This document shows positions 232 through 27,200 of a stretch of DNA of 29,420 nt, in pieces. Each line of letters opens with the position of its first letter. The stretch's first letter is position 1. Origin of the DNA: an uncultured Planctomycetales bacterium (lineage in GTDB: Bacteria > Omnitrophota > Gorgyraeia > Zapsychrales > Fredricksoniimonadaceae); assembly GCA_964396865.1 (NCBI GenBank), contig CAYNGE010000001.1, positions 1-29,420 of the forward strand, written 5' to 3'. The notes under the pieces were generated by a model, which saw only the letters and a list, made by a program, of their open reading frames with translations, was not told where the DNA came from and did not search any database. Position numbers and translations under genes: made by a program.

Positions 232-3200
232 AAACTCGGCATTCTCCATTGTCAATGGCGCATTGGGATGACGGATATTGTAATAAAGATGTGCGGCCGC
301 ATTTGATAAAAACGCGGCTGCAACAGATAAAATAACGACAATCAAATTCCCGATAAGCCCCGGAACCCCAATAAACCAAGGAAGAGTCAATAATGCTATC
401 TTCGCTGTAACCCCGCCGATCCCTAAACCCATCAGGGTTGCCAACTTCATATGACGCCAACCGGTCGTCATCTCGTCTCTTTTATTGGAATTCTCAGGAA
501 AATGCGAAGCTATATAATCACGCCGCAAGGATGCTTTTACCTCATACCACGGCGCAAAGTATAATTGGATCTGCCTGTTTGTCGCTTTCCACATTCCCAG
601 GCTTATCCAACTAAAGAATTTTCGTCCGGGTCCATAAGTCGTCCAAAGAGTCAGCCCCGCAACGGGTTGCGCGGCAAGCTGCATAGTTTCAATGACCTTG
701 CAGAAATAAAATGGTTTTTCAATGACCGCGCAGATGCCGCGCTTTTCATCGCGGATGTCGCCCTCCTCATTCAGGGCAAGTTCCGTAAGCTGTGGGAAAT
801 TCATAAACAAGGCAACTTCCTCAATGTCAACGCCGGCATCTCGCAAATTTTCCAATTCGCTGCGGACCAAAGCCATATGGCTAGGAAGGATCTTAGGATA
901 ATATTCATGAAAAAGCTCTTCAACGGCTTCCGGCAATAACAATCCTTCTGCGTCATAGCATTTCAACAAAGGATTTCCAAGGCCTTGTCTCTTTATGCCG
1001 GGGACATTTTCCAATAAAAAGAGCCTAAATTCCGCAATCGCCTGCTCCCAGTTTCCCTCCAGCGCATGCCTCCTGGCTCTGCCTAAGTTGCGAACGCTCC
1101 ATGGAAGACCGTTATTATCCGAGAATTTCCTAAAAATATTCATTTCAATGGCCGAGCTAAAATCATGTTCATCTCCTCCGCCGAAATCAGCTGCATTCTC
1201 TAGACAGAGACACCCCATCCATTTCTTGGCCTCGCAGGACATATGGTAGCAAGCACCGACATATTTCATAATTGCAGCGATCGCCTTCTGGTCGGTTCCG
1301 GCTTGAAGCGTTTCATGGACCCGCAGGAATGTTTCGTCAAGCATTTCATCTGACCGGCCAAAAAGAACAATCAGGCCATGAAGATCGCCCAAATCGTTCA
1401 CAGATAAACCGATTTTCTTCAACACCGCAGACTGCACGATCCTTTTTAATAGACCGCGAATCTGCTCATGTGGATTTATACTTTTAGAACTAAAGAGATC
1501 TGGACGTTCTTTAAGCAATTTATACCCACTCTCCTCCCACAATAAAATCCAAAGCTCATAGTACTCTGCCGGCCCCATGTTGACGCCCCATTGAGCGCTG
1601 TCAGGATTAAAAAGAAGGAACTTGGCTTTTTCACTAAGCGCAGGCCATCCTTCACTTTTCACTTTGCCCAAATGAGCAAGGGCCGTTTCATAGCCGGCCA
1701 AAAGTTCACGAGCGCGAGACATTCGGCCGGTTGCCGGTGAACGGAGCTTGGCCTCATCGCTTAAGATGATAAATTGTGCCCGCTTATTTTTCGCTTGGAC
1801 CGCCTTGATCGCCTCATCAACAATGTCCTTTTTAATGTCCTGATCAAAAGTAATAAGAAGTTTGGGCGTAATGCGATAAACATTCAAATACCGTTTAAGC
1901 GAAAACAAAGTCGTCATACACACAAAATTAAACCTGTCCCCTAACTCTCCTCTTATGCGCGCTGCTAAATCTTCGGCTTCGTCTATGGGCTGGGTGAGGA
2001 TAAAGACTGTCTCTTTTGCCGGATCAATTTCCGGATAATCATGATAAAGCTGACGTAACCGGGCAAGTTCAGCTTCTTTCTTAGAGGGTTGTTTGCTGGT
2101 CACCAGCCTATTGGCCGCATCAAATTCGGCAAGCTGCTTTTCGCGTAATTTCGTAATTTGCTCAAAAAATTCATAAAAACTATACGGCTTTTGTAGGATC
2201 GCGACCCTCTGGGCATCAGAACCAAACATTTCCTGCAACACATGTCTATACTCTGGCACCTCAAAACCGGTGCTGGCATACAAGATCGGGATCGTCTTTA
2301 ATCCATCTCTATACTCAAGAGTTTTGTCGCTAGAAGGAATGCCCAGATCAAAAATGGCAACATCAAACTTATTGCGCGCCATTACCGCCAAAGCCTCATC
2401 AGCATCAGCGACAATATCAAAATGGTATTGTGAAACAGAGCCGAAATGTATCCGTACGGATTGTTGCAAGCTATCACGTATGGAGTCGTTATCTTCGAGC
2501 CAAAGGATAGAAAGCCGGGCCGGCGGAGTCCGTGATACGCCGGATTGCAGGCGCGCCGTTTCGTGTGCCTTCACTGCTTCATCATATGCAGTAAGCTGTG
2601 CTTGGCGGGCCTCTTTAACCACTGAAGAAATTACATCTAACAAATCGCTTTTACAAAGCACCTCGATTTCTTCCAACGGAACTCCATAAAGCGCTTGAAG
2701 CTCAGCTCCCCCACCAAATGCAACAATGCCCTCCTTGTCCAACGCGGAAATAGTGATCATCCTACCAAGTTTATTGATATCCCATTCTTTACGTATAGTT
2801 GAATAAACCACCGAGCGGCTAACAATGACAGGACACGGCAATAGAAAATCAATAAACGACAAATCAAAAGTTTTTGTTTGAATTAGCCCTCTAACTTGCG
2901 CCCAACCTCGAGCGTATGTAAACTCATATTGTGAATCACTTGCAAAGGAGTCATCTAATTCATCTTTAATTGCTTTTGATATATCCTCTTCATCTTCGAC
3001 TATCAGCACTCTCAATTTTTCTGGTATTTGCGGCCCAGGAACAAGAACGGTCGCGCTACTGGACTGCCGGCGCGCCGCCTCGTATGCCTTTATCGCCTCA
3101 TCATAGGCCGCAAGCTGTGTTTGGCGAGCCTCACTCACTGAGGAAACAACTAAAGAAGCTGTATCTACGATGCCGGTTTCTATGGTCATGCGCCCTAACG

Positions 3201-6200
3201 TTTGACTGTCAATAAAATTCCCTAAATACCTTATGACTTCTTCCTCAGAGCTTGGGGCGCCGGTAACAGCAATAATATTACTAACATCGCTCAACTTCTT
3301 AGCGAATGCCTCTTTACCCTTCTCTCCTCCCATGCCGATAGTTACATCAAATACAACTAAATCAATGGCATTATCCGATAAAATCTTATTAGCCCCTGAA
3401 CAATTCGACGCGAAATGAAATTTGTATTCTGCGGAGGGGAATACGGCTTTTATCTTATTCTTACAGCAAGCTAATACTTGCCTTTGATCCTCCACGACCA
3501 GCACGCGCAGCTTAGCAGGATGAACTGGGGCTTGCACAACGCCGCTTGATGCGGTGGATGCCGGTTGCTGTACTGATTTTTGCGCTACCCTCTTATCCAG
3601 CCATCGCGCATGCCATTGCTCCACAATTGAAACAACGCGTTCGTTGGTAAAATCCTTTTGGCTGATGACGGTCTCACCAGGAATACAGAAACTCGCATCC
3701 TTCGAGGATCCCTCCGCCAAAAGCGAATGCATGATACATAATGCTTCAGGATTTGCTGAGAAGATATCCGTAGTTACGTCGCTCACTCTTGGGGCATTAG
3801 CTCCTCCACCGACATGAATTAACGCCAAATCAACATCACGGCGATATTGGGTAAGGAGAGCATCAAATTCCTCCCACGTCTCACGCCTCTCAACAACCCA
3901 TCCGGCATGGCGCTTAAGTTCTTCCTCAATTGTTTCATACCATCCGTGATAGTCAAAAATAACCACCCGAAATTCGTCCCTCCGTGCCGCAGGCGCAGGC
4001 TTATCTTTCTGTGCACGACTTTCTTTAAGCTTTTGGTCCATCCCTTTAAGCTCCAGAACTCCATGGAGCCGCTTCATCCATTCGGATTCCCAAGACGCCG
4101 GTACAAGCGGAAAGTTCAATGCTTCCTCCAAAAGTCCAATGAACGGCTGCACATCGGCCAAGTCATTTTCTGTAAATAGCCCTTTCTTCAATCCTCTCTG
4201 AACGGCAGACAAATCATTCAGTTTTCCGGCCAAGACTTTTTGGAAGATGGTCTTCTTGCTCTTGCCTCGCATGTGCTGCAAAACAGTCCACTCCAGCTTC
4301 CTATATAATTCTCCTAGATCTTTTCCTGAAGACTTCTTTGACAAAACGCATTCCTCAAGACGCTTGATCAACAAGGTTGATAACGGACTGCTCATCCATA
4401 TCGTAATCCTCTCATTAAAGGGGCTCTCATCAAGATATAATGACGCGTGCAGGCCGTCGCAAAAATAAGTTATCTCTTTTGTCGCCACCCACACTCCTTC
4501 GAATTCCTTATGACGGCGGAACTCCAGCGCGGAGGATAGCCCTTTGCGCAAAACCGGGCCATTGGCATAGGAAAATTCTTCCTGATTGATGCGGTCATGG
4601 ATCAAGGTGATGTTGTGCGCCGAACGCGAGCCCATATACGGGTCAACCAACACTCTGGCCATGGTTGTTTGATCAAGGACAGCTGAAGCCGCATCGTACT
4701 GGATGCGTATATACGGACGCCCAAATTCATTTTCAAACTTTTTAATCGTCTCTTTCGTCACATTTCTACCAAAGGCCACAACGCTTGCCTTAAATCCTTC
4801 GGGCTCCGTCGCGCCCAGGCCGATCGGCGTCTTGGCAATTTTCTTTTGGGATTGAAGAGTCTTCGACGCAACGACCAAGGGCTTACGGAAATCTCCGATC
4901 ATGGGACGCATCTGAATAATAGAAAAGACCGGGCCGGTAGACGAATGTTGGAGTCCCCACTCAACATCCATAGACACTCCAACCTCGTCTTCCAGCGCGT
5001 TAACAACCAAATTCAACACAGATGCATCTTGGGCGCTAAGCGGCGCAAAAGAGCCATTGATCTTGGAGTAACCGCCTAAAACCTTTTGAATCAAAGCGCG
5101 ATCGTCACGCGCACAATACTCTTTTCGTTTAAGACGAAATGCATAGGGCGTATCAAGGAATAAAGGTTGATACTCCATGGATGGCGCCTTTCCGCCCTCC
5201 GGCTTGGTGAACATATACTCTGCCGCATTCGCAAACATGGACTGCACAGCGTAATTCGTGTCACCAACAACCGCCTCAATTGAAGTATGGCCGGAGAAAT
5301 TTGACATCGCCACTCCTGAGACGTCAAAATCAAGAAATGGCTGGATTAAAATACCAAATCCTTCCTCTTCGCTTAAAATATCCGGCAGGCCCTCGATTTT
5401 CTTTTCTCCCTGGTATTGGCGAATCCAGATAATTTCAATGGCATCCTTAAAGATCGCTTTTACTGCCTGAGCAATGAGGTCCCTGTCGCACGCTCTCTTT
5501 GAGAGGAAAATTCCGGCGAGGTTACGGACAAACGAATCTTCCCAAGTGCCGCTTGAACGGGCAATGGCCCAGCCGGTCAATCCCGCCGCTTTATCTTTTA
5601 AAAAATTGTCCAGCTCATTAGAGAAATTAAAATTACTAATAAGGCGCTGCAATTCACGAAAATCCTGTTGTGTGAAACTACCTTTTGTCAGGGCCTTACG
5701 TATAGTCTCGTTGCCAGAGGTGACTAGTGCAGCATTGTCATGCAGAAAGATCGTCCAGGCCTCGCGGATAGCAACCGTCAACGAGGGCGTGATAGTCCGG
5801 ACATTGGCTCCGAGACGCTTGGCGATAATGGGTATAAGAATTTCCAGAATAATGGTCCACGCGATTTTCCCACCGTAAATCCCGGCAAGATACTCAAAAT
5901 AACGGCGCACGCCAACGGCCTTAAGGGCAAAATATTCGTTTTCGGCATCGGTACGTTGGGGGTAGGCCAAGAGGCTTGCCTCGTGCAGGCGGGCCATTAA
6001 ACATTCAACTTCATTTTCTTTGGATAAAAGCGGACGGTCGATATCGCAGCGTTCACCGCGGACAACGCTATGCAGGTTCGGCATCATCTTCCCGGCAGGC
6101 GGAGCCCGGGTTTCCATAGTGCCCATTTTCTCAAGGGCCGCGATAACCTTCTCATCGCCCGCGATCCTTTTGGCCTGGGCATCAACCTTGTGCAGATAAT

Positions 6201-9200
6201 CCCAATCTTCTGGACCAATGGAAATATTACCGGAAATTTCGTTTTGTATCGACGCTTCGCGTTGTTGAGGGTCCTTGGGCAATCGATCGTTCCTCTTGGC
6301 GCGGTGGGGATCGTTTGCAGCCGGCGGTATGGCGGAAATAGCAACAGAGGACGCTTGCAGAAGCCTGCGCAACTGGATGGGCTGCGGCTCGGCATTCTTT
6401 ACCACAATTTTAGGGCCCGACACAGGAAGAAGCGGTGTAAAGCTTTCCTGACCAGCCCTATTGAGAGCGTATTTAACAACGCCGCGCGCCTGCGTGAAGC
6501 GAAGAACGCCTCCATAATTCATATCCGACTCCAAACGACTGCGCCGTTCCATCGGAAGTGCAAGCGCCCTGCCGAGAAGAAAAGGCGTAAACGGTTTATA
6601 GCACCATCTCATTTTCTTTAGGCTCCGGCTCCCAGCGACAATCCTCTTGGCCAGCGTCTTATCCGGTGCCATGCCCGTGTAACCATGCGCAATCTTGACA
6701 TTCTTCTTACCAAACAGTCTTGTTGCCAACTCATAAGCGTACGCCAGATTTTTAATATACTCCCGACGTCCCAACAGCCTGTACCAGGCGCTCTCCGTTG
6801 TGATATGGAACCGTATGCTCAGTTTTAAATTGTGCTCCATTCTAATCCGGGCGATCATCGTCATCGCCTCCTCGCCGAAAGACCCCTTCAGAAATCCGGA
6901 CGTGCTAAACGAGTCCCCGAATAATACTTCCATCGTAAACCCACGGTCGCGCCAGGCCTCAACAATATGTCCGTAATGTTTGCTGAATAATGGATCATGG
7001 TAATCCTTAAGCGGGTCGGCACCGAACCAGTTAAATGCTAAGACAAAACGATTCTTAAAAGGCTCGCGGGGATCCTCACTGCAAAAGACTGTCATTTCGT
7101 CCATCAGTTCGACGATCCACGGCCACGGCATAGAGCTCGGGCGTATGGAGCATGGACGGCAGCAATAATCGCAATGGGTCGAACATCCTTCCGTTATGTC
7201 AACGTAAGCGTTATACATCGACCCTGCCAAAGACAACGCTTCTTTTGGATCCATGTGCTCGAAATACTTCTCAAACCATGCCGCCTGAGGGTTCTTAAGC
7301 GCGGCAACGAGCCGGGCAATCTCCTGTGCGTCCACCGGCGAGGACAAAGCCACATCGAGCGCCTTAACAAACTCGTGCCCCGCGGCGGATAACGGCGCCG
7401 GATACTTCGCAATAACTGTCCTCTGTTCTCTTAAAAATTCCAAGCCTTCTATCGAAAGCAGCTCCGCATGCTTGCGGCCAATTTTATTTTTATTATTAAT
7501 CTTTAAATATTGAAGAGGAGTCCCTGTCTTAGGTCGCTTGGGCAAATTAGACAATTCTCGTTTTTCTTTCAACACCTCGCGCGCCTCAAACAGTATCCTG
7601 CGAGTCGTTCCTTCGGGTTTTTTAATTATGCGACTAATTTCCAGTGCGGTAAGCCCTTCCAAACAATGCAGGACCAAAACTTGACCATGAAGACCGCCCA
7701 ATTCATCTATCCAATCTAATACCAAATTTAACTCTTCTCTTAACATTAGGTCGTTTGCCAGATCGACCGATTTATCTTGCAAGTCCTCTATTAGGCCTCC
7801 TCCCACAGCATAACGTACCCTATAACTTTTAATAAAATTAAGACTGCGATTTACGGCGATGGGATATATCCACGTATAAAAAGCTGATCCCCCTCGAAAA
7901 TATCTTAACTTTCTCCAAGCAGTAATAAAAGTCTCTTGGACGATGTCTTCGGCATCATGAAAATTCCTCACTATGGAAAAAACGATACTAAAAATCCTGC
8001 CCTTATATTGTTCCATCAGCATTTCAAAAGCCTGTATATCTCCACGTTTGGCGCGTTCGACTAATCCTGCATCTTTAAGACCCTTCCTATTGGTCATAGT
8101 GCGAATGGCAAAGGCTTCGGCAATTCTCGATTGATGATATTGATATTCACGGGTTTGATGGGCGGCGATACGGGCTTGGCGATTCTTTAAATCACTGTTG
8201 TTTGGATATTGCGCATGCAGGGCTGTAATAAACGCACGAACGGATGCCTGTTCACCCTGCGGATGGTCCTGAATAAACGCCTCAAGGAGAGCGGCGTATT
8301 GGTCCGGCCGTACGTTCCAAAAATCAGTCTCCTCATCTTCAGCCGCCTTCATAGCCACCGCAAGCGCGCGCTCATACTTGCCAGCCAGAAGCAACCTCTC
8401 ATACTTCTCCCTCGCCGTCTTGCGCATGGCGGGGGCTGAAGATCCTCCCGTTATCTTTTGCAGATCCTGATTCCTAATTTGTTGAGATTTAAAAGCAGAA
8501 TTTAATCGCCTGGTTGCATGCTTTATTGCCCCGTTTTTTAGTCCTTCCTCTACTGCAGATGTGCCCCAACACAATTCATAGCCGGCATGCCCATCCATCT
8601 GCCTATGAATTTTTGTATGCGCGATCAAACGATAAGCATGATAATAAAACCCAATCACCGTCGCCGTTATAGTTTTGCCCTTATACGTAAATTCAAGTTT
8701 CTCTCCAAAATCTACGTCCAAATATGACAATTTGCTTCGGGGCTCACTTAGGAAAGTCACTCGCCCCTTTAAGATATCCCCTAAATCAACTGTCTGCGGG
8801 GCTTCTTGTGAATCAGCAGGGCAAAGCGGACTATCAATAACCGGCAAAGCAATAGGGATGTATTTCAAAACACTTGACTTTAATGTCAACGCTTCCAATA
8901 TCATCACCCTTTTGATCTTCGGTGTTGGCGCATATTCCTGCCTAGAGACGCTTCCAGGCTCTGCAGATTTTTCGGTCAAACAAAGCCGGGGCTGCGTCTT
9001 GATATAAGCAATATCTCCCACCGATAGTAAAAGAGCTCTTTCTACACTTTGATCGATGCTTATTTTCTCCTTGCGAAGCCTTTCAACAGAATCAGCCATT
9101 ATCGGGATACTTTCTCCACAGCCCCAAAGATCAAGATGATCCATCCATTTTCTCAATAATTCATCAATATCTACCTCCTTGGCCTCAACTGGAACGATGT

Positions 9201-12200
9201 TTAATTCTTTCAGACGGCTCGGGAACAATTTGCTAATATCAATGAATGCCTCGTGGGACCCTTCTTTGTCCTTCGGGTTATGGTCCGGATGCACTTCCTG
9301 AACAAACATTCTGTAAATACTTTTTAATTCCTCTTCCGATTCAGCTGCGTCGATCAGTCTCTTGTATTTTGCTCTTACGCCTCCCCATTCGCCTCTTTCA
9401 TGGCTTTTAATTACCCCCTGTACAGGACATTTCGGATTATCCGCGTAATGCGCGACTGCCGTTGCCAAAATCCCCATCCTGCGGGCGCGACTGACAGGCG
9501 TTTCCATCAGATGGCTGCCCCTTACGGTTTGAATCATGCTAAAAATCTGCAGCCACCGCTTAAACTCCTGATCATAAATCCGGTCATATTTCTCCCCACG
9601 CAACAAAAGCAAAGTTTTATGGAGCTCCTGTACAGGTACCCAACCAAACGGTGTTAAAACCTCATCGTGCCAACCAACCCATTCCTTCGAATCACGACGG
9701 GAACCGTCAGGATTCGTCCTCGCCTCTTCCTCTCCGAGCACTCTGTTCCACATCGAATCTTCATTCAAATCCTGCGGAACAACGGCCAAAAGCTTCTTCA
9801 TCTCGGGAATCTTTTTTTCATTGATCAGGCTACGGAAAATCTTTAATTCAGCCTTATTACACGGTTGATATTTTCTGTACCAATCGCTTAATTCTGCCGC
9901 TTCGTCTACGGGCAAAACGAGAACCGTAACATGCCCACTCATGATATATTCCGGAACATAATGTGGAGAAAAAATATCGACGATAAAATCCTTATCCCCC
10001 ATTTTGACTAGAAGGTAATAATGTACCGCGCTGTCCTTCAACCGCTTGACAATGGCGACCTCCGCTTGCAGCCTCCTCTGAAGCGCCCAACCTAAAAGGA
10101 CATTCATCCAGCAAGAACCCTTTAACGCTTTTATTTTTTCAATACGCTGTGCGTCTTGATACGCCATCCGACAGAGCTGCTGATTTTCACTTGTCTTGCT
10201 ACCTACGGATGTTTTCTCCATCGCCATGGCGAAGAAGATGAAAGGAAGAAAACTGAAGATGTCATGGATAGACGGCAAATGACCAATGATAGACGTAAGA
10301 GGCCCCGCGCGGATGGCATGGGCGATGAAATTTCCAATCAGCAAAGACAACGCTACGGTTGTTATCCCCCATAACACCGGCATAATCGTATAGGCCATCG
10401 GCAAAAGAAAAAGCTGATTAGATAGTCGGGAGCCGCCCGTCTTGACCCTTTGGGCTCTTTTAACTTCCATGACCGCAAACGTCGTATTTTTATGGCGATC
10501 GGCTATATCAAAAATCTTCCAGGAATTCTGTTGATTATGCTGATGGATCCACTTCTGGACTCTTTGGTAATCTCTCTGAGCCTTGTAATAAATGGCCGCC
10601 TCCAGCGAAGAGCTTGTTTCTGATTGTTCAAGCGTTCTGTTTGTCATAAATGAAAAAACTTTTCCATCTTCTCTGCGGCCTGAGCGTCCGTTACGCTGCA
10701 CGGTATCCTTGTCAGATCCGGGGTCCGCATTAATAACCAATCTCACTTCATAATCTAACCCTACCTGACCAATGGAGCTTGAAACCAGCCAGATATATTG
10801 ACCCTCGTTAAACTCTTCCACCACTGTTTCCTGTTCCCTTTGCGTCTGCCGTATGCCGTCCTTCCCCCCTGATTGGCCCACAAGGATCGCCACTTTCTCT
10901 TTACCAACAATTTTTTGCAAAACCTGTTCAAGGTCCAAGATGAAACGCTTATTATTCGCAAATACAATGGCCTTAAAACCTTTTTTGCCCATGTTGTCTT
11001 GCGCAATTTTTGCCAATGCCTCCAATTTAGGATGAAAGACTTTATTTTCAAAGGCCCATTGCGCGATCCTCTCAACACCTGAATCTTTCAAAAATGGCAA
11101 AGTTTTTTTGCGCAATGTGACCAACTTGCCCATTGAAGCCGCCTGTTCTTTTTGCCGGAATTCTTCAATGGCATAATGGACATGCATTGGCCCGTATTTA
11201 ACGAATGTTGTAATGAGATGATTTAAATACACCAGATGGGTATACGCAATTGTGTGTTTCCCCCTGTCCTTAAGGCCCTTAACAAATGCGTCGTAACGGT
11301 CCCTATTCGGCAATAGGGCCGCGTCCTCGGTATCGGGGTATTGCCGTTTAAGGGCAAGCAAACCTCGAGCATACTCAAGCCGAAGTTTCAACTCTAACTT
11401 TTCCATGGAAACAAATCTTATAACTGCTTTGCGCAGATCTTCGGAAGTTTGTTTCTTTGTCTCCTCGCTATTAAGCCAGGCATGGACCTTGGCGGGATTA
11501 AGGATGGTAAGCTGTCCTTTTAAATAATCGATATATCGTCTAAGGTAATCTTGAACAGCCAAGGCATGCTCCCTGTCAGACTGAGACCCGCCTTTTTTTG
11601 GCTTTGTCGGTGCTTGTCGCTTGAGGGACCTTACCTGCTGTAGAATTTCAATCTCCGGGTCCACTTGCAGCAACTTTATTAATATATCAACCGCCGTTTG
11701 CCATTGGGCAGTATCTTCTGAATTGGCCTGATCTGTGATCTGTGCCCTTAAATTCTGATAAAATTCTTCGTCTAAACAACCCGCCCCTTTGGCTCGATCA
11801 TAAAGCTGATCAACAAACGCCAGTAAAAACTTTTCATGTTCTCTATATGAAGTATCTACTTTAATAATTTCGCGCTTATAAATATATGGTTGGATCAATG
11901 GATCATCATCAGCAATGGCCAAGACCCCCTCTTGGGAGATACGAAACAGCTTTATCCAGATCTGAATATCGCTTGGGGTGCCGTCATCAGGCCTATTAGG
12001 AGTATCGGGCGTTGCGGTCAATGCCAATAAATACGGCGGCAACTGCTGAACGGACATGCCCTGGTTAGACGCCTCTTGTTCTTTAAATTTGTGCACTTTT
12101 TCGACCAGTTTTGCCGAACTGCTTTTTTTACGCGCCATATGGGACTCATCAACGATCAAAAATGCTATCTGCTTTAAATAATCATCTTTCATTTGGACAA

Positions 12201-15200
12201 CCAAATCGCTGGTGGCAATGATGATCTTGCTTTCTTTCCAAATTTTTTCTCGCTCTTTACGCGAATGTTCCCTGGCCATAAGAGCAACAGGGACTCCTCC
12301 TGATGCCCCTTTTCTGCCCGGGCCGAGTAACCGGTTGAACAATTTATAATGTTGTCTGACCAATGGATTTGAGGGGGCCACAAACACGATCTTCTTATCA
12401 AAGCTGCTTTGAATATCTCCACGGGTCTGTAAAAGATACGCCGCCATAAGCACCGCAATCCCTGTCTTGCCTAAAGAAGTTTGTAAAAATACCGCTGAAT
12501 TTCTTAGCGTGCTTTGGGCTGCCGCCAACACTTGATACGCCCTAAATTCAAAATAAGCATTCAGCTGCCTGCCTTTTACGGAATCGATCATAAAATGATG
12601 GCCGAGTTCCGGATCCTCGAAATGTTTGATGGCTAACCCTAAATGCTTGATTACGGCTTGAACATTCGGATCGTTTTGCATCTCCGTTTCAAGCTGCCCG
12701 CGCGCTTGTATGACCTTTGCATCCAATGTTCCCTGTTTTATTTTTAATCGTTCCTTTTTAAGCTGATTTTGCATCTTCTTCATCCAGTAAGATTTTTTAG
12801 CTAAGGCCCACGGAAACATTTCTTCTTGGGGGGGCTTATTCTCTGATTGCTGCAATTCTGGTTTTCTCCCTCCCACTAAGTAATGTTCGGGAATATCTGT
12901 TGTATTAGTCAGAATAAAATCAGCTGGAATGGCATCTATATGTTGGGCATTAAAATGATCGGGTTCGTTGCCTTGAGGATAGGCAATGTGGATCAATTGA
13001 TCCTGGCCTAGTTTAAGGATATATTCATCGGCATCCCTTCTCTTATATAGCAGCATCTGCGTACCGAATTGAGCTAACTTGGGCTGTAGTCGTATTAAAG
13101 CCTGTTTTAAGACAAGCAATTTGCCCTGCGCCTTATCCCCATCAAGCCAGCCACAAACAGTTTCAATATCTACATTAACTAACGGGACCACCTCTCTAAT
13201 CAAGCAATTGTCCTTTTTGCCTACCTGGACACTTGGATTGCTTAAAAGGGCTAATCGCTCAAGGAATTTTTTCGGGTTATTATTGAACGGCTCCAATCTC
13301 TTTTTGGTCTCAAGAGATTCTTCCGTGTTCAAAAGATCAAGCCCACGCAAAACAGGATAGCTGGCCATCCCAAACTGATCCCAGCGGCTTAGTTTATTGA
13401 CCATCACCCTCTTCTCGTTAAAATATTTATTAACAGCAACGATAAACCCTTGTGTGTCGAATTTATGAGAATCCGGCAACCCCGCTTGAAATTGTTCTAT
13501 CTCTTTTTCTTTTCTGGCTTGCGTCACATAATATTCGGAAAGTCTTCCAACGGTCTGGTCAAATTCTGTTTGAACCCTTGTCTCAAAATTCGTTCGCTCT
13601 GCTTCAGTTAGCGCTAACTTTTGGGCGATGGCCTGTAACTCCTCAGTCAATTGCTTTGCAACCGAGACTCTCGCAACGACAGTAACATCCCCCGGCTCTT
13701 CTTCTTTCTCCTGAATAGCTTCAATTTCTTTCGCGATCCAATCATTGATTTTAGCTGCCACGTCCTTGAACTGTTGATCAATGGCCCCTTGTCTCGCTTT
13801 GCGCTCCTGCTCAAGAATTAATTGCTTTTCTCTATCGCCCAATCTCAACTGCAGATTCCGTTTCATCGCGTCAAAAACAGAATTTCCTTCACCGGCCGTA
13901 AAGCGCACCGTCTCGGTGGCGGCAACTCTCGACTCATGACATTGATATTCACGATCTTGATGGGCGGCGATACGGGCTTGGCGATTCTTTAAATCTCCGT
14001 TGTCGGGATATTGCGTATGCAGGGCTGTAATAAACGCACGGACGGTTCCCTGTTCGTTCTGGGGATGGTCCTGAATAAACGCCTCAAGAAGAGCAGCATA
14101 TTTCGCCGGGGATAAGTTCCAAAAAGCGTTCTCCTCATCTTCGGCCGCCTTCATAGCCACCGCAAGCGCGCGTTCAAACTTGCCAGCCAGAAGCAGCTTC
14201 TCATACTTTTTCCTCGCCGTCTTGCGCATAGCGGGCGCATCCCTTGATGCTTGCAGAAGCCTGCGCAAATCATCAGATTGCAACTCGCCGCCCTTCACCA
14301 CAATTTCAGACCCCGGCACAGGCAGAAACGGCGTAAAGCTTTCATGGCCAGCCCAATCGAGAGAGTGTTTAACAACGCAGCGCGCCTGCGTGAAACGAAG
14401 GACATCCCAAACTTCCTTCGTCGGTCCCAAACGATTGCGACTTTCCAACGAAAGAGCCAACGCCCTGCCGATAAGGCTGGGCTTGTACGGTTCGTAGCGG
14501 CACTGATCCATCGCCTCCAGATTATCACCGACAATTTCTTCTGCTAGCGCCTTATCCGGCGCCATGCCCGTGTATCCCTGCACGATATAGACATTCTCCT
14601 TACCAAATAGGCTTATCGCCAACTCACAGACATTCGCCAAATGTTTGACATACGTCAAACGGCCTAATTGTCTGTACCAGGCGCTCTCCGCTGTGATATG
14701 AATCCGTATGCTCCGTTTTAAATTGCGTTCCCTGCTAAGCCGGGCGGTCATCGTCATCGCCTCCTCACCGATAGATCCCTTCTCAAAGCCGGACGTGCTA
14801 AACACATCCCCTATTAATGTTTCCATCGCGAACCCATGATCGTGCCAAGCCTCGACGACATGTCCATAATGTTTGTTAAATAATGGATCATGGTAATCCT
14901 TAAGGGGGTCCCCTGCGAACCAACTAAACGCCATGGTAAAACTAGTCTCAACAGGCCCGCTAAGGTCCTCCTTTCTGTAAAAAGCCGCCATTTCGTCCAT
15001 TAGTTCGACGATCCACGGCCACGGCATGGAGCTCGTGCGCATGGAGCACGGGCGGCAGCAATAATCGCAATGGGTCGAACATCCTTCCGTTATGTCGACG
15101 AAGGCCTCATGCTTCATCCAGGCCAAAGATAACGCTTCTTTGGGATCCATGCGCTCGAAATACTTTTCAAACCATGCCGCCTGCGGGTTCTTGAGCGCAG

Positions 15201-18200
15201 TAACGAACGCGGCAATCTCCTGCGAGTCCACCGGTGAGGACAAAACCGCATCGAGCGCCTTGACGAACTCGCGCCCCGCGGCGGATAACGGCGCCGGATA
15301 CTTCGCAAGAATCATCCGCCGTTCCTTCAGGAATTCCAATGCTGCATCCAAACCCCGGGACGACCGATCCTGAAAAGATCTTACGCTTGATCCAATCCGG
15401 AGCGCATTTAATTTGTGAGCCCATGCTCTCCGACATTCTTGCGTATTTACTTGAGCTACCATGTCAAGGGGATTGAACGCAAATACAGGCCCCCCAAGAC
15501 ATTTATAATTGGACCATGATCTCATGGAAAAATACCCAAAAGTCTGCGGATCGTAATTAACGGCATAAAGCATTCTCACATCGTATAAATTAAATAAATA
15601 TAACATCAGCAATGTCCCAATCTGCCTTTTTTGGAAATTGCGATCCACATGGATCATAAATACCATTAAACTCCGCCGTCCCTTATAACGCACAACTTTA
15701 TAATCGATTTGAGCAATCACCGCCTTCGTTTTTTCCTCATTGATCACGATCCTATTCTTAAAAAATAACACCCTCTGACCATTTAAAGAAACCCGTGCTC
15801 CCACTCTATTTGAGATCAAATCCAAGAAGGCCTCTCTTAAATGTTCGGCTTGCCCGTCCTTCTTAATAGCGCACCTTGAGGGACGAATATGGTTCCATAG
15901 CCGATACATAAATATCTTCACATATTTAAAAACCTCGCCGGCAAAATCTACTATTAATCCGGCAAGAATACCACCAGCGTGACCAAAATTGCCTATCGGA
16001 ATAAACAATCCTAACAAAATCATCCAGACAAAATTAGTCCACAACAATTTTTGGCCTTTCAATTCTATATAAGGATAAGGGATGACCATAAATTTCTCAT
16101 AAGGAAAATATCGGGAAAAAGCTGCCATCAAGGCAAAGATCCCTGCTGAAGAGCCCACACAGCTCATATTACTGTATGTGAATAAAAGCCTGTTCCCTGC
16201 TTGGGAAGAAGCGGCTATCATGACCGGCAAAGTCCCTTCTGCTATACCTCCCAAAACAATGCCTAAAAAGAAAATCTTTAAGAATGCTCCCCGTCCTTTT
16301 TTCTTCTCAATGTCTTTACCAAAGACGTAAATGACCGCCCCGTTGACAAACAAATGAAATAACGACCCATGAAGAAATCCGTAAGTAAACAACGTCCAAA
16401 GATGTCCTCTTATTGAGTTATCCAGAGAAAGCCCAAACCAAGAAATCATGGGAGGGCCAATGATTAATTGTGCGAGATATACTCCTAAGATGGTAATCAT
16501 CACGGCATTGACACCAGGCCGCCATTGACCCGACGAACGCTTTTGCTCTTTGACTTCCTTCCAGAAGAAATAGCTAATAAGCATCGTAATCATTGCCCCT
16601 TGTGTATACGGCGCGACCGAATAAAACATATTATGATTGATAAAAAACAGAGCTAATTGAAACAGTAAAACTAGCGATACTCCCAAACAGACGGCCAGTC
16701 TCGGGATTGCGCCTTCAGGGATATCCTTGGATGAGCAAACCTCTTTGGTAATTGCTAAAATAGCATCAATCTTTCTTTTAATGAACTTTCCCCAACCTAG
16801 TTGATAGGCAATGGCGACACCAATAATGGCCAATCCCAACACAACGACAAAAGGCGACTGTGTCAATGATCCAAAGGACATCATGACCGTTCCAAAGGCC
16901 ATTTGAACTCCCGAATATCTTGCGCTTGAACCAATCGGCATGGCGGGAGCCGTATCTGAAAAATCTTTTATTTTTTGTAGTGGAATATGCGCCGCAATAA
17001 TGTGCCCGCCCAACGCTAATCCTTCCTCATATATATCATTACGCCAACCCAATTCTATAGACGGTTTGATGCGCCAATAATCAAGTTGTTCAAAAAGGTT
17101 ACTGATCCCGAAATTGTGCCCTCCGACATTGGTTGCTGATTTTGGAGCTTTAGGCCCTCTCCAAGGATGATGATCAGCATTAAACCATTTTCGTTTAGTT
17201 AGATGTTCTGGCAACGGGTGTTTTCCCTCTCCCCATATTTCAAAACGTAGGCCAGGGCAAGGCCTATCATGAACAAAAATTCGAATGACGGGCGAGTACC
17301 CGTCTCTGGCCTCATGCTGAATGATATTTTCCATAATAAGGCTCAACACTAATAACAAAGATTGGTCGGGATCTTTAACAATATCTTTGATATCAAACCC
17401 TTCTTTCGTTGCTGCAGAAATAATGATATTAAACAATTCCATATCCAAAAATCCCCTATTAGCATTAGCTCCTTCAACAAAGGTCTCCCCTCTTAAGGTG
17501 TACCTGCTAAGCACGATAAAAGGGACTTGGTTATTCCATACGGCTGATCGTTGTCTTAAAAATGCTTCATTAAAACTATACGGCTTCGGAAAGACCATCT
17601 TCCCGACAGCCATGCCGAGAACGAATAAAGGAAGGGCGCCAAAAATATCAACTAACATTTCCGGCCCTGTACGGATAAAGTTTGCGACGAGTTCATGAGC
17701 GCTGATAAGAAATGTCTGCACGCCGGGCCAATAATGGCCAAGCACCGTAATGGCAAACCCGCAGAACGCGACAGATGCCGCATCCTGAGAATCATTCCTG
17801 GCAGCTTTCGCAAGCGCCGGCATTTGCGTTGCATGATCTATGCTCGCTGCCGACGGATTGACCTCTGCGCGAAGCCGGGCATCAGGATGCTGTTTAAGAA
17901 AAGCCAGCGCTTGTTGCGCTGATCCCATCTCATCGTCATCCAGCGCCACTTTGCTAAAGATCCTCTCCCGCACGCACGCAAAAAAGAACCCAATAGAGAT
18001 CTCATCGGACCGGACTTCCCAAAGAATAGTACTTTTACGGGCCAGCCCAACCACCCGATGCATCAACGCCAAACCTATGCCGCTATGAGTATCGGCACCA
18101 CGATAGATACGTAACGCCACTTCCGCCTCTCTTTGATTCCCTTCCGCTACGCGGGGATTGAAATACATCTCCCCGATGGCCTGCTGTTGACGGGCAACAA

Positions 18201-24200: not shown

Positions 24201-27200
24201 GAGTAGCGTTATAGGGATTTTTTAAGACCTCCCGCGCCTTAAGTACCAGTGCTTCAATTTCTGCCGCAGTATAGGGGCCGTATGTTTTTATGAGCTCCAG
24301 CCTGCTCTGATAATTCTTTGTCTGATCTGGAAACTCTTCTTCCAAATACTCGGCCGCCGGGTCCCTCCGGGCTAACAGGGCCAATGCGTCAATGGCCGCT
24401 ATGCGCACCGCCGGAGTTTGATTCTCCAGTCCCCGTCCGGAATCCTCTGAGTTTCCAGTTTGATGCCTGTATTTGGCAATTGTCGCCGCCACGACAACCG
24501 AGCCCAAAAGTCCCACCACAGGCCCCACGGTGTAGATGTTCATTAAAGATATTGCTGCCAGCCCAATCCCCCACTCCCCTGCCAAGGCAATGGTAGGAAA
24601 CAATATAAGACCTAAACCTATCATTAAGGTGAGCATAATCCCTCTGCCCTTAGTAAAGATACGGCCTCTTTTGACTTGAGCCTGTCTCTCTATATCTTGG
24701 GCCCTTTGATTATTTATTTGGGCATGCTTATGCTCTCCTAATGCCTCATAAATTCGAGCACGCATACGGTATAATTGGACATTAACTGACTTTTTCTCAA
24801 CACGATCCAATTGTTCAATGTGATTTAAAAGTATTAAAGAATTCTTAAGAAGGCTTTCATAATTCTTTGACGCTTTGTAACCGATCGTGTGCTCAACTAA
24901 ATCTAGAATGATCTGCTCATAGCCAAACAAGTCTGGTTTGATTGCAAACATCTGTGCCATAGCTTCATTGGCTCTACCAGAATCAAAAAGAGCCAATATA
25001 TGTGCTTTGAGACATATGCCTTTGTAGGGCTTTATGCCTTTCCTATATATAAGGATCGTCATAATGACGCCAAATAACAGTGCCGCAAAAACGACAAATA
25101 AAACAACAACTTTACTGTTAATCCCCATCGTCAATATTGTCGGTGTGAATACGCCCCCGCCAATGCCCCGCTCTCCTGCCTGATCGAACAATGGGAAGCT
25201 GTCCCCTTTAACTTTCCCATGGACATTTAGATTGCCCAAAAGAGCTAACTGTTCAAGGAATTTTTTCGGGTTATTATTTAACGGCTCCAATCTCTTTTTG
25301 GCCTCAAGAGATTCTTTTGTCTTTAAAAGATCAAGCCCGCACAAAACAGGCCGGCTGACCATCCCAAACTGCCCCCAACGGCTTAGTTTATTGACCATCG
25401 TTCTCTGCTCATTAAAATATTTATTAACGGTGACGATAAACCCTTGTGTGTCAAATTTATGAAGATCCGGCAACCCTGCTTGGAATTGTTCTATCTCTTT
25501 TTCTTTTCTGGCGCGTGTCACATAATATTCGGAAAGTCTTCTAATGGTCTGGTCAAATTCTACTTGAACCATTGTCTCAAAATTCCTTCGCTCTGCCTCA
25601 GTTAGTGCTAACCTTTGAGCGGTGACCTCTAGCTCTTCAGCCAATCGCTTTGCAACCGGGACTCTTGCAACAACAGTGGCATCCCCCGGCTCTTCTTCTT
25701 TCTCCTGAATAATTTCAATTTCTTTCGCGAGCCAATCATTTATTTTAGCCGACACGACCTTAAATTGTTGATCAATGGACCCTTGTCTTGCTTTGCGCTC
25801 CTGTTCAAGATTTAATTGCTTTTTTCTATCATCCAATCTCAACTGCAGATTCCGTACCATCGCTCCCAAAAAAGGGTTTTCTTCATTGGCCGTCAACTCC
25901 TCCATCGCGGCGGCGGCAACTCTCGATTCATGATATTTACGATTGCGGTCTTGATGGGCGGTGATACGGGCTTGGAGATTCTTTAAATCTCCGTTGTTGG
26001 GATATCGCGCATGCAGGGTTGTGATAAATTCACGAACGGACTCCTGTTCGTCCTTCGGATGGTCCTGAATAAACGCCTCAAGAAGAGCGGCGTATTTCGT
26101 CGGAGATGCATTCCAAAAATCAGTCTCCTCATCCACGGCCGCCTTCAGAGCAACGGCGAGTGCACGATCATTCTCGCAAGCCAAAATCATCCTCTCATGC
26201 CTCTTCCTAGCCATCTTGAGCATTCCAGGAGGCGCCAAAGGCGTCTGATCTAGCCCGTTTGGCGCTGTTTGATACAATAGAATTTCTTGGCGCAATTTTT
26301 CTTCTAATTGCTCAATTGCCCTTTCATGGCCGGATAGGCCTACTAACCATTCGATAAGAATGTTATATTCATCTTTTGCCAAAGATATGTTCAAGAAAAT
26401 ATAGATCACGTACCACAAGTCATCTATATGGGCCATGTCCGTTGTGTACCGCTGTTGATCGAAATATTTATCAATGACATTGCTTGTCACGCACTGGAGG
26501 CATGTCTGAATTTTGGGGAGATCGAATGCCGGGACCTTCTTTAATCTTCCTAAAGCGCTTGGATTTTTGATCGATATCTTCACTGCATAAACGATCTGCT
26601 GGAAATTTCTAATGTGCCCGTAAAGACCTTGCACGCCTAACTCCTTGGTTAAGTCAATGGGAGATGAGGGTTCGCCTTTATAAATTGTAGCCCCCTGAGA
26701 CAGAGCATGGATCTCTTTAATAGATGCAAGGAGTCCCGCCAGTTCGAACTTGCGGACAGACGCCTGCGGATTTTCCCCAGTACTTGGCCTTTGTTCTTCA
26801 ATGTCAGGATAGAGGCTGCCCCATCTTCTATTTCCCGTCCATGGCTTGGAGAGTTTGACTACTATTAAGTTATACCTCCACCCGGATCTAAAATTCCTAG
26901 GATTTAAGGCCGTAGTAACCTTCTTCATGTCTCTGAAACAAACAATCACTGTGTCCTCGCATCGATGTTTTATCACATAACTTATTGCAGGTATTTTCAG
27001 TACGGCTTCGTTGATCTCCCGCATTTTCTCTACTACTCTCTTCGGGTCATTTATCCTGCTCTTAAGATACGCTCGAAAGGCCCATACAGCCGCGTACACA
27101 ACGGCAGCGAGTGCAAGGATGGCAATAACAGGCCCGACCGGCCCGCCCATAAACGCAAACGCTAAAGCGGATCCTCCCAAAAGATTACCCCCGCCATGGA

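Follow-up and report, generated by a model that had tools for sequence, protein, structure and literature searches.

A predicted RpoE-like ECF sigma factor, complete from Met to C-terminus, lying in frame inside a giant multidomain open reading frame of an Omnitrophota contig

The analysis described here concerns a stretch of 29,420 bases (hereafter the window) from an uncultured bacterium placed in the Omnitrophota by its GTDB lineage (GenBank assembly GCA_964396865.1, contig CAYNGE010000001.1, positions 1–29,420), and within it a sigma factor of the extracytoplasmic function (ECF) type which is located in the interior of a giant protein. The whole window is taken up by one open reading frame (ORF) on the minus strand (1–29418, with codon 1 at 29418–29416), which runs for 9,806 codons with no stop in frame, as against 345–768 stops in each of the other five frames. 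This ORF is open at both ends of the window, so that 9,806 codons is a minimum and the true gene is longer. The giant chain is a mosaic of domains comprising a rhomboid, two methyltransferase regions, a DExH helicase, a J-domain, the ECF sigma factor, two radical-SAM-like modules, a PPDK_N domain and three receivers; about 15 hydrophobic segments, located by the Kyte-Doolittle method, are dispersed along it, and most of its length gave no match in Pfam. All the modules described below are contained in this ORF and are on the minus strand, and their positions are given in window coordinates followed by the residue numbers of the chain (aa).

The sigma module is located at 7558–8094 (aa 7109–7287). 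An earlier note made from the sequence alone had placed a complete ECF sigma factor at 7558–8097, between a repeat called A3 and a radical-SAM-like repeat called B2, with regions 2 and 4 fused in frame; these coordinates turned out to be exact, and the flanks and both regions were confirmed. The module was searched with an ECF profile which was built here from 143 free ECFs, and the 9,806-residue chain gave a single match, with 183 bits and a domain E-value of 2.4e-58 over profile positions 6–186. Region 2 (sigma2; 7822–8019, aa 7134–7199) is matched by PF04542 Sigma70_r2 with 61.9 bits (cutoff 24), and region 4 (sigma4; 7564–7713, aa 7236–7285) by PF04545 Sigma70_r4 with a marginal 24.9 bits (cutoff 24.1). 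These are the only two Pfam matches in the module, and the lack of regions 1.1 and 3 is the layout of an ECF. The NCBIfam model of the ECF family (TIGR02937, sigma70-ECF) covers it almost end to end (positions 2–164 of 165) with 83.9 bits (cutoff 42.9). Within NCBIfam the RpoE-type models match best and the RpoE/SigW-type family is the closest one, with scores of 108.4 bits for TIGR02939 (equivalog cutoff 236.15) and 110.2 for PRK11922 (cutoff 204); as no equivalog cutoff at all is reached, the module is classified from its sequence as RpoE-like and not as an RpoE equivalog. Residues 8–187 of the 194 residues of E. coli sigma-E (1OR7) are colinear with it (92 bits, E-value 3e-25, about 38% identity).

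The structural predictions are confident and are in agreement with these matches. In the AlphaFold model the per-residue confidence (predicted local distance difference test, pLDDT) is 88–97 for sigma2 and 80–95 for sigma4, and the two are joined by a linker of about 25–36 residues with low pLDDT, as in free ECFs. The predicted sigma2 superposes on region 2 of E. coli sigma-E (4LUP, 2MAP and 5OR5) with template modelling (TM) scores of 0.85–0.93 and a root mean square deviation of 1.0–1.7 Å, and in the fold search with the sigma model every top structural match was an ECF sigma factor. The module is thus like E. coli sigma-E, AlgU and SigW in its full-length colinear alignment, in its order of sigma2, linker and sigma4, and in having these proteins as the closest to its predicted structure. 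On the evidence of profiles and models, the giant ORF contains in frame a whole RpoE-type ECF sigma gene of about 183 codons, from Met to C-terminus.

The surroundings of the module were resolved by comparing the giant protein with itself in chunks; the self-BLAST of the whole protein had missed the internal repeats. Repeat A is present in two full-length copies, A1 (25219–26235, aa 1062–1400) and A2 (13225–14295, aa 5042–5398), and in a third copy, A3 (8113–8490, aa 6977–7102), which is truncated to its head and shares 67–70% identity with A1 and A2. Repeat B is present twice, as B1 (14206–15342, aa 4693–5071), directly followed by A2, and as B2 (6295–7428, aa 7331–7708), the radical-SAM-like module downstream of sigma, with 60–77% identity to B1. 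The self-comparison matches themselves span aa 6977–7106 for A3 and aa 7325–7708 for B2. The radical-SAM motif of B2, CSTHCDYC (CxxxCxxC), is at aa 7412 (window 7162–7185). Repeat B as a whole is barely detected by Pfam (10.5 bits), its conserved motifs are TEGCSxxCDYC, MPWPW and DPLxDYxDPL, and it may represent an undescribed domain family.

Between A3 and B2 lies a cassette of 228 codons (7429–8112, aa 7103–7330), made of a lead of five codons (FAIRT), the full ECF ORF and a linker of about 43 codons. The borders of this cassette are sharp: the homology of A3 to the other A copies ends at "...HQSRIAEA" (aa ~7102), five codons ahead of the methionine Met7108, and the homology to repeat B resumes at aa ~7331. 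Beyond the same breakpoint A1 and A2 continue into an unrelated charged tail of about 230 residues, which in A2 stands where A3 has sigma. The possibility that these tails are decayed sigma factors was rejected, as no ECF profile matched them even with the filters off and the alignment gave z = -0.4; one MAFFT alignment had pointed to a resemblance of the repeat-A tail to the repeat-B head, but this was not significant either (z from -0.4 to 1.0). A target-site duplication was searched for at the two ends of the cassette, and no common word of 6 nucleotides (nt) or more was found.

The base composition of the cassette is also different from that of its surroundings. Its GC content at third codon positions (GC3) is 0.377, which is the 1.5th percentile of the giant ORF, while the flanks have 0.51 and 0.59; the contrast between cassette and flanks is at the 0.24th percentile, the cassette being the AT-richer part. 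The linker after sigma (7429–7557, aa 7288–7330) is AT-rich and predicted to be disordered (pLDDT below 50), and with a GC content of 0.20 at 7478–7522 it holds the tied lowest 45-nt stretch of the giant ORF. This linker may be the former 3′ flank of a captured gene, but it also aligns weakly to the lead-in of one Omnitrophota B module.

The closest relatives of the module were looked for in protein and nucleotide collections. For the sigma-bearing segment, a word-indexed protein search, scans of contigs from genomes, metagenomes and viruses, and an exhaustive HMMER search of 1.84 billion representative proteins all gave no ortholog or close relative. Among the HMMER matches listed, the closest relatives of sigma are free ECFs of about 150–290 residues with 30–48% identity; no match to the sigma part has an E-value below 1e-30, and none has a sigma factor in the middle of a giant protein. 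Only two of the listed matches are longer (714 and 880 residues), and in both of them sigma is N-terminal. The closest free ECF by word-indexed search (37% identity, P0156) is followed by a 156-residue ORF (754–1224 of its locus) which has no Pfam match and occupies the place where an anti-sigma factor is usually found; nothing similar stands after the embedded sigma.

The repeat units were followed in the same way. The combined unit of B1 and A2 gave no matches by word-indexed search. Repeat B alone has three long matches, all of them proteins of Candidatus Omnitrophota metagenome-assembled genomes (MAGs) with 33–38% identity, each of which fills its contig, and one of which embeds a complete three-domain acyl-CoA dehydrogenase; loci L002 and L003 are matched by repeat B as well. 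Eight loci (L002–L009) were fetched through the repeat-B alignment, and seven of these are giant ORFs, open for 2,206–6,920 codons. In the seven giant-gene loci no ECF module was seen closer than 10 kb to repeat B, and in the loci fetched no repeat-A module was seen within that distance. Over the whole set of relatives the identity of repeat B is 28–38%. One of the MAGs carries the label "Patescibacteria group" (L004, which seems to be identical in sequence to L008), and another, L005, is of Deltaproteobacteria and has repeat B in the context of a normal-sized gene.

The full-length match to the ECF family, the breakpoints, the unrelated tails of A1 and A2, the composition and the absence from relatives lead to the conclusion that the sigma gene was captured in frame, and in this lineage only. 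The suggestion of the earlier note that a captured gene had been kept whole is therefore well supported, by the breakpoints together with the end-to-end ECF alignment, the A tails, GC3 and the lack of a sigma near repeat B in the seven related loci. On these sequence comparisons the origin of the module would be a lineage-specific capture of a whole gene, and we consider its capture and its translation as an internal module to be very probable. The compositional contrast could also stem from gene conversion among the repeat copies and not from a foreign origin.

The ATG at 8095–8097 codes for Met7108 and lies, as had been pointed out earlier, where a free ECF would start: it is in frame, one residue from the start of sigma-E, and corresponds to sigma-E residue 2 in an extrapolated 1OR7 alignment. 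Among the six embedded modules that were checked, sigma is the only one with a methionine at its predicted start. A methionine is found within ±3 residues of a random position of the giant ORF in 14% of cases, and near a given position it is expected by chance in 6–14%, so Met7108 is suggestive of the start of the captured gene and not a proof of it. No AGGAGG-like element is visible by eye in the 25 nt upstream, in agreement with the earlier observation that the ATG has no Shine-Dalgarno sequence, and on the minus strand between 7300 and 8700 no promoter-like site was found, the matches being fewer than in shuffled sequence. No stop follows sigma either, and the product from Met7108 would be of at least 2,699 residues up to the window edge. 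A gene within the gene, in which translation from the ATG at 8097 gives a separate sigma-containing product, could draw on the exact placement of this methionine, yet such a product would not be a free sigma and has no signals for its expression, and we regard it as very unlikely. Lacking a ribosome-binding site, a promoter-like site and a stop of its own, sigma would be made only as an internal module of the giant chain, and Met7108 is best read as a fossil of the captured start codon.

Repeats A and B create branch points in an assembly graph near both junctions, and so it was considered that a free ECF had been mis-joined into a repeat-rich contig, or that an error masks a stop codon. Several studies of soil, peat and wetland metagenomes have the stretch in their Logan contigs. 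In two independent metagenome runs from different studies, X1 and X2, the A3/sigma junction is crossed by single unitigs with 0 mismatches (7943–8171 in X1; 8087–8401 in X2), and the junction of sigma, linker and B2 is crossed in the same manner (7383–7913 in X1; 7508–7978 in X2), while read-length contigs identical to the sigma region are present in two further studies (X5 and X7). Contigs with 87–88% identity over 7171–7412 and 8155–8280, which looked like allelic variants, were found to be the window's own B1 and A1, with all 30 and 15 differences identical; the runs with a lower share of the stretch were also taken up as a possible diverged strain, and this was rejected since they hold the same sequence at low depth. 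An artefact of assembly or sequencing is thus extremely unlikely at the sigma cassette. Further downstream, position 5993 is followed immediately by 6110 in contigs of X1 and X2, with 116 nt missing, a length not divisible by 3, and after 6150 these contigs diverge from the window; the depth drops over 6206–6800 in X2 and in run X3. No local direct repeat was found which could explain this joint, and it may reflect either a strain in which the ORF is broken or a different paralogous path.

What the embedded sigma does at present is judged from the condition of its sequence. Of the 30 most conserved ECF columns it retains 87%, compared with 89 ± 8% in free ECFs, and at the variable columns it has 19% compared with 18%, that is, it is as diverged as any ECF; no insertions or deletions are present within sigma2 or sigma4. 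These values would suit a module which still works as a sigma factor, and on the whole we prefer the reading that it is a built-in pro-sigma, which is inactive as long as it is part of the giant chain and is released by cleavage, with a probability of roughly 35–40%.

Several findings weigh against this pro-sigma. At 39 conserved columns the module has seven rare residues, where free ECFs have 1.7 on average and only 2.1% of them have seven or more; among the changes are R7186P (region 2), R7245G (region 4.1) and, within the recognition helix of sigma4, V7272T, S7274R and R7275I; this helix reads GTTRRIL against the family consensus GTVRSRL. By sequence this pattern fits relaxed constraint or an altered function. 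The intact frame itself is uninformative, because selection on the downstream chain would hold it open. In addition, no anti-sigma Pfam family and no HxxxCxxC zinc-binding motif was found anywhere in the giant chain, no membrane helix stands beside sigma as it does in known fused sigma/anti-sigma proteins, and the two cuts which are needed for release are without precedent.

These points are taken up most directly by the reading that the captured ECF is no longer a sigma factor and is a passenger which decays slowly, or has been repurposed as a spacer or a protein-binding module. The rare substitutions put it at the 98th percentile of free ECFs, with three conserved arginines lost and the recognition helix altered, and its TIGR02937 score of 83.9 lies at the very low end of the scores of the tested free ECFs (83.8–124.5). 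The retained methionine, the composition unlike that of the flanks and the absence from relatives would indicate a fairly recent capture, which leaves little time for decay to become visible, and the module would persist simply because the chain downstream of it needs an open frame. On the other side, the well-kept top columns, the freedom from indels in both regions and the confident predicted fold count against this reading; about 2% of genuine free ECFs are equally unusual, and the donor lineage may already have had these residues. The functional motifs of other modules of the chain (the rhomboid, the HPD of the J-domain, the helicase and the aspartates of the receivers) are also kept, which indicates that its modules are generally not decayed. 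The passenger or repurposed module is a serious possibility at less than even odds, nearly tied with the pro-sigma, and the pro-sigma is preferred.

A partner for sigma within the chain was proposed in the earlier note, which took the segment 16990–17481 for an RsbW-like HATPase_c domain. This proposal was not borne out. The segment has no Pfam match at E ≤ 1 and no sequence match in PDB, its GHKL-like motifs are visible by eye only, with the Asp of the G1 box replaced, and its single-sequence AlphaFold model has a pLDDT of 33 and is unusable. It also lies about 3,000 residues upstream of sigma, past several predicted membrane helices. Kinases of the RsbW/SpoIIAB type pair with group-3 sigma factors (sigma-B and sigma-F type) and are not known to pair with ECFs; the sigma described here is an ECF lacking region 3 and hence is not of the group-3 type.

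Another kind of control is known from PhyR, in which an ECF sigma-like domain is combined with a receiver and acts as an anti-anti-sigma factor by sigma mimicry in a partner switching system (the ECF15 system; PMC7826278). By analogy, the embedded module could be a mimic or decoy that has lost DNA binding and titrates an anti-sigma factor, and receivers further along the chain could control it. The likeness to PhyR consists in a sigma fold inside a larger signalling protein with receivers and in changes at some of the conserved DNA-facing residues, among them the conserved arginines lost in the recognition helix. Three diverged, receiver-like modules are indeed arranged in tandem downstream of sigma in the same chain (window 1930–3633, aa 8596–9163), each with its phospho-acceptor Asp. 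They are, however, about 1,350 residues away and not directly fused as in PhyR, the closest families of the module are genuine sigma factors of the RpoE/SigW type, and no NepR-type partner or other anti-sigma factor was identified in the chain, so that a decoy is quite unlikely. Upstream of the three receivers a PPDK_N module of the ATP-grasp type is located (window 4900–5808, aa 7871–8173), which together with them makes a signalling-type segment.

The arrangement of membrane helices gives some indication of where sigma would be placed in the cell. The nearest predicted helix upstream is at 10312–10389 (aa 6344–6369; Kyte-Doolittle mean of 1.9 over 19 residues), and the nearest one downstream is a weak, borderline prediction at 5809–5889 (aa 7844–7870; mean 1.6–1.7). 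Sigma is thus about 740 and 560 residues away from the nearest helices, and about 1,470 residues around it are free of predicted membrane helices. The sigma, the J-domain and the radical-SAM-like module of this stretch are cytoplasm-type parts, and by this prediction sigma is probably cytoplasmic. The J-domain (9229–9348, aa 6691–6730) has 26 bits with PF00226, slightly below the cutoff of 27.8, and its HPD motif is intact at aa 6710. It precedes sigma by about 400 residues within this helix-free stretch, which hints that DnaK may be recruited to this part of the chain.

Given this placement, sigma might also act without being cut, the embedded module binding DNA or core RNA polymerase and so tethering transcription to the giant protein at the membrane, much as membrane-bound one-component regulators do. 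ECFs that carry a long C-terminal extension, and in some cases an N-terminal one, are known to function without its removal (PMC8999054, PMC7826278), and the linker after sigma4 is modelled as flexible within a stretch that is probably cytoplasmic. With over 7,100 residues before it and no fewer than 2,500 after it, the module nevertheless carries far more than any known extension, and the model shows a continuous helix from A3 into the start of sigma (pLDDT 71–78) with no flexible hinge; action of the uncleaved module is therefore considered unlikely.

Under the preferred pro-sigma, the following course of events is proposed. While it is part of the membrane-anchored giant chain, sigma would be kept away from RNA polymerase; cuts on either side of it, for example in the disordered linker after sigma4, would free a sigma factor of about 20 kDa, which would bind core RNA polymerase and thereby couple the processing or deployment of the giant protein to the transcription of a dedicated gene set. 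The protease may be a cytoplasmic one or the chain's own rhomboid. The rhomboid intramembrane protease module is located at 15943–16407 (aa 4338–4492; PF01694, 68.1 bits) and its catalytic signature looks intact, with the motifs FLHGSLFHLFVNG, GSSAG and GHAGG and with the HxxxN, Ser and His kept; it is put forward by inference only as a candidate for an in-chain processing protease. It could also cleave membrane helices of its own chain.

A stronger version of this idea is that the giant ORF is a true polyprotein, which is cut by in-chain proteases such as the rhomboid and of which one product is a private ECF sigma factor. The private sigma would then activate a set of genes dedicated to it, to which the giant gene itself may belong. 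We regard the polyprotein as rather unlikely, but if it is true, one gene would carry both enzymes and their own transcription factor, and the release of sigma would signal that the giant protein had been synthesised and processed.

The pro-sigma reading, which the earlier note had offered as a tethered sigma activated by cleavage, is made plausible by known sigma factors. B. subtilis pro-sigma-E and pro-sigma-K are activated by proteolysis. Among ECFs, proteolytically activated fused sigma factors are IutY (ECF243), which is cut by Prc and RseP, BldN (ECF121), from which an N-terminal pro-sequence is removed, and SCO4117 (ECF52), and regulatory extensions of up to 400 residues are present in ECF48, ECF52 and ECF53 (PMC8999054, PMC7826278). 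The embedded sigma is like IutY, BldN and ECF52 in being covalently fused to a non-sigma extension, and the proposed logic, inactive when tethered and active after cleavage, is the same. In the known fused sigma factors the extension is on one side, has some hundreds of residues at most and has an anti-sigma-like or membrane segment adjoining; here, unlike in IutY, BldN and ECF52, sigma is internal, its neighbours are repeat A3 and a radical-SAM-like module, and a cut is needed at both of its ends. The free group 4 (ECF) sigma factors sigma-E, AlgU and SigW are held by the membrane anti-sigma factors RseA, MucA and RsiW, and free ECFs have about 190 residues; compared with these, the module is embedded, has no start signals and no stop, has no adjacent anti-sigma factor and carries seven rare residues at conserved sites.

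The other side of the comparison is with the giant proteins of Omnitrophota. West-Roberts et al. (2023; 10.1101/2023.11.21.568195) describe "Archaeovorin-type" giant proteins in this phylum and giant genes of more than 90 kb (more than 30,000 residues), and a 2026 preprint (10.64898/2026.06.07.730766) describes a "multi-enzyme metabolic cluster" class; SecA_DEAD is reported in most, not all, of the Omnitrophota giants. The present chain is like them in its long stop-free ORF, its scattered membrane helices and its mosaic of methyltransferase, PPDK_N, radical-SAM-like, helicase and receiver modules. It is also like them in one common module, repeat B, whose only long relatives are wall-to-wall ORFs of Omnitrophota MAGs with whole enzymes embedded. 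Unlike in most of these giants its helicase is of the DExH type: the module (window 10669–12507, aa ~5638–6250) belongs to superfamily 2, matches PF00270, PF04851 and PF00271 (DEAD/ResIII/Helicase_C) and not SecA_DEAD, and has its motifs I, II, III and VI intact (LGKT, DESH, TAT and QRNGRSGR). Among the embedded domains named in the searchable text of the two sources there is neither a sigma factor nor a rhomboid. The case described here thus combines two known kinds, the sigma factors with fused extensions and the giant mosaic proteins of the Omnitrophota type.

Apart from the giant ORF, the window has only one complete ORF of at least 150 residues, at 6070–6621 on the plus strand, which has an ATG start and 183 residues. 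It is antisense to the giant ORF, in the most GC-rich part of it, and is probably a by-product of the composition.

Sigma factors are usually small and free and are kept under a separate anti-sigma factor, and the known fused forms are terminal with a modest extension. Here a complete ECF sigma factor is preceded by over 7,100 residues in a chain whose minimum length is 9,806 residues. An active sigma in this place would have to be excised by two cuts or to direct transcription from a membrane-tethered giant protein, and either of these would be a new form of sigma control. The module would then also bear on whether giants of the Omnitrophota type are processed or act whole, for which it would be a convenient reporter, having an assayable activity and a known size. 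Whatever its function may be, the repeat breakpoints, the kept methionine and the composition provide a clean snapshot of giant genes growing by the in-frame uptake of whole genes.

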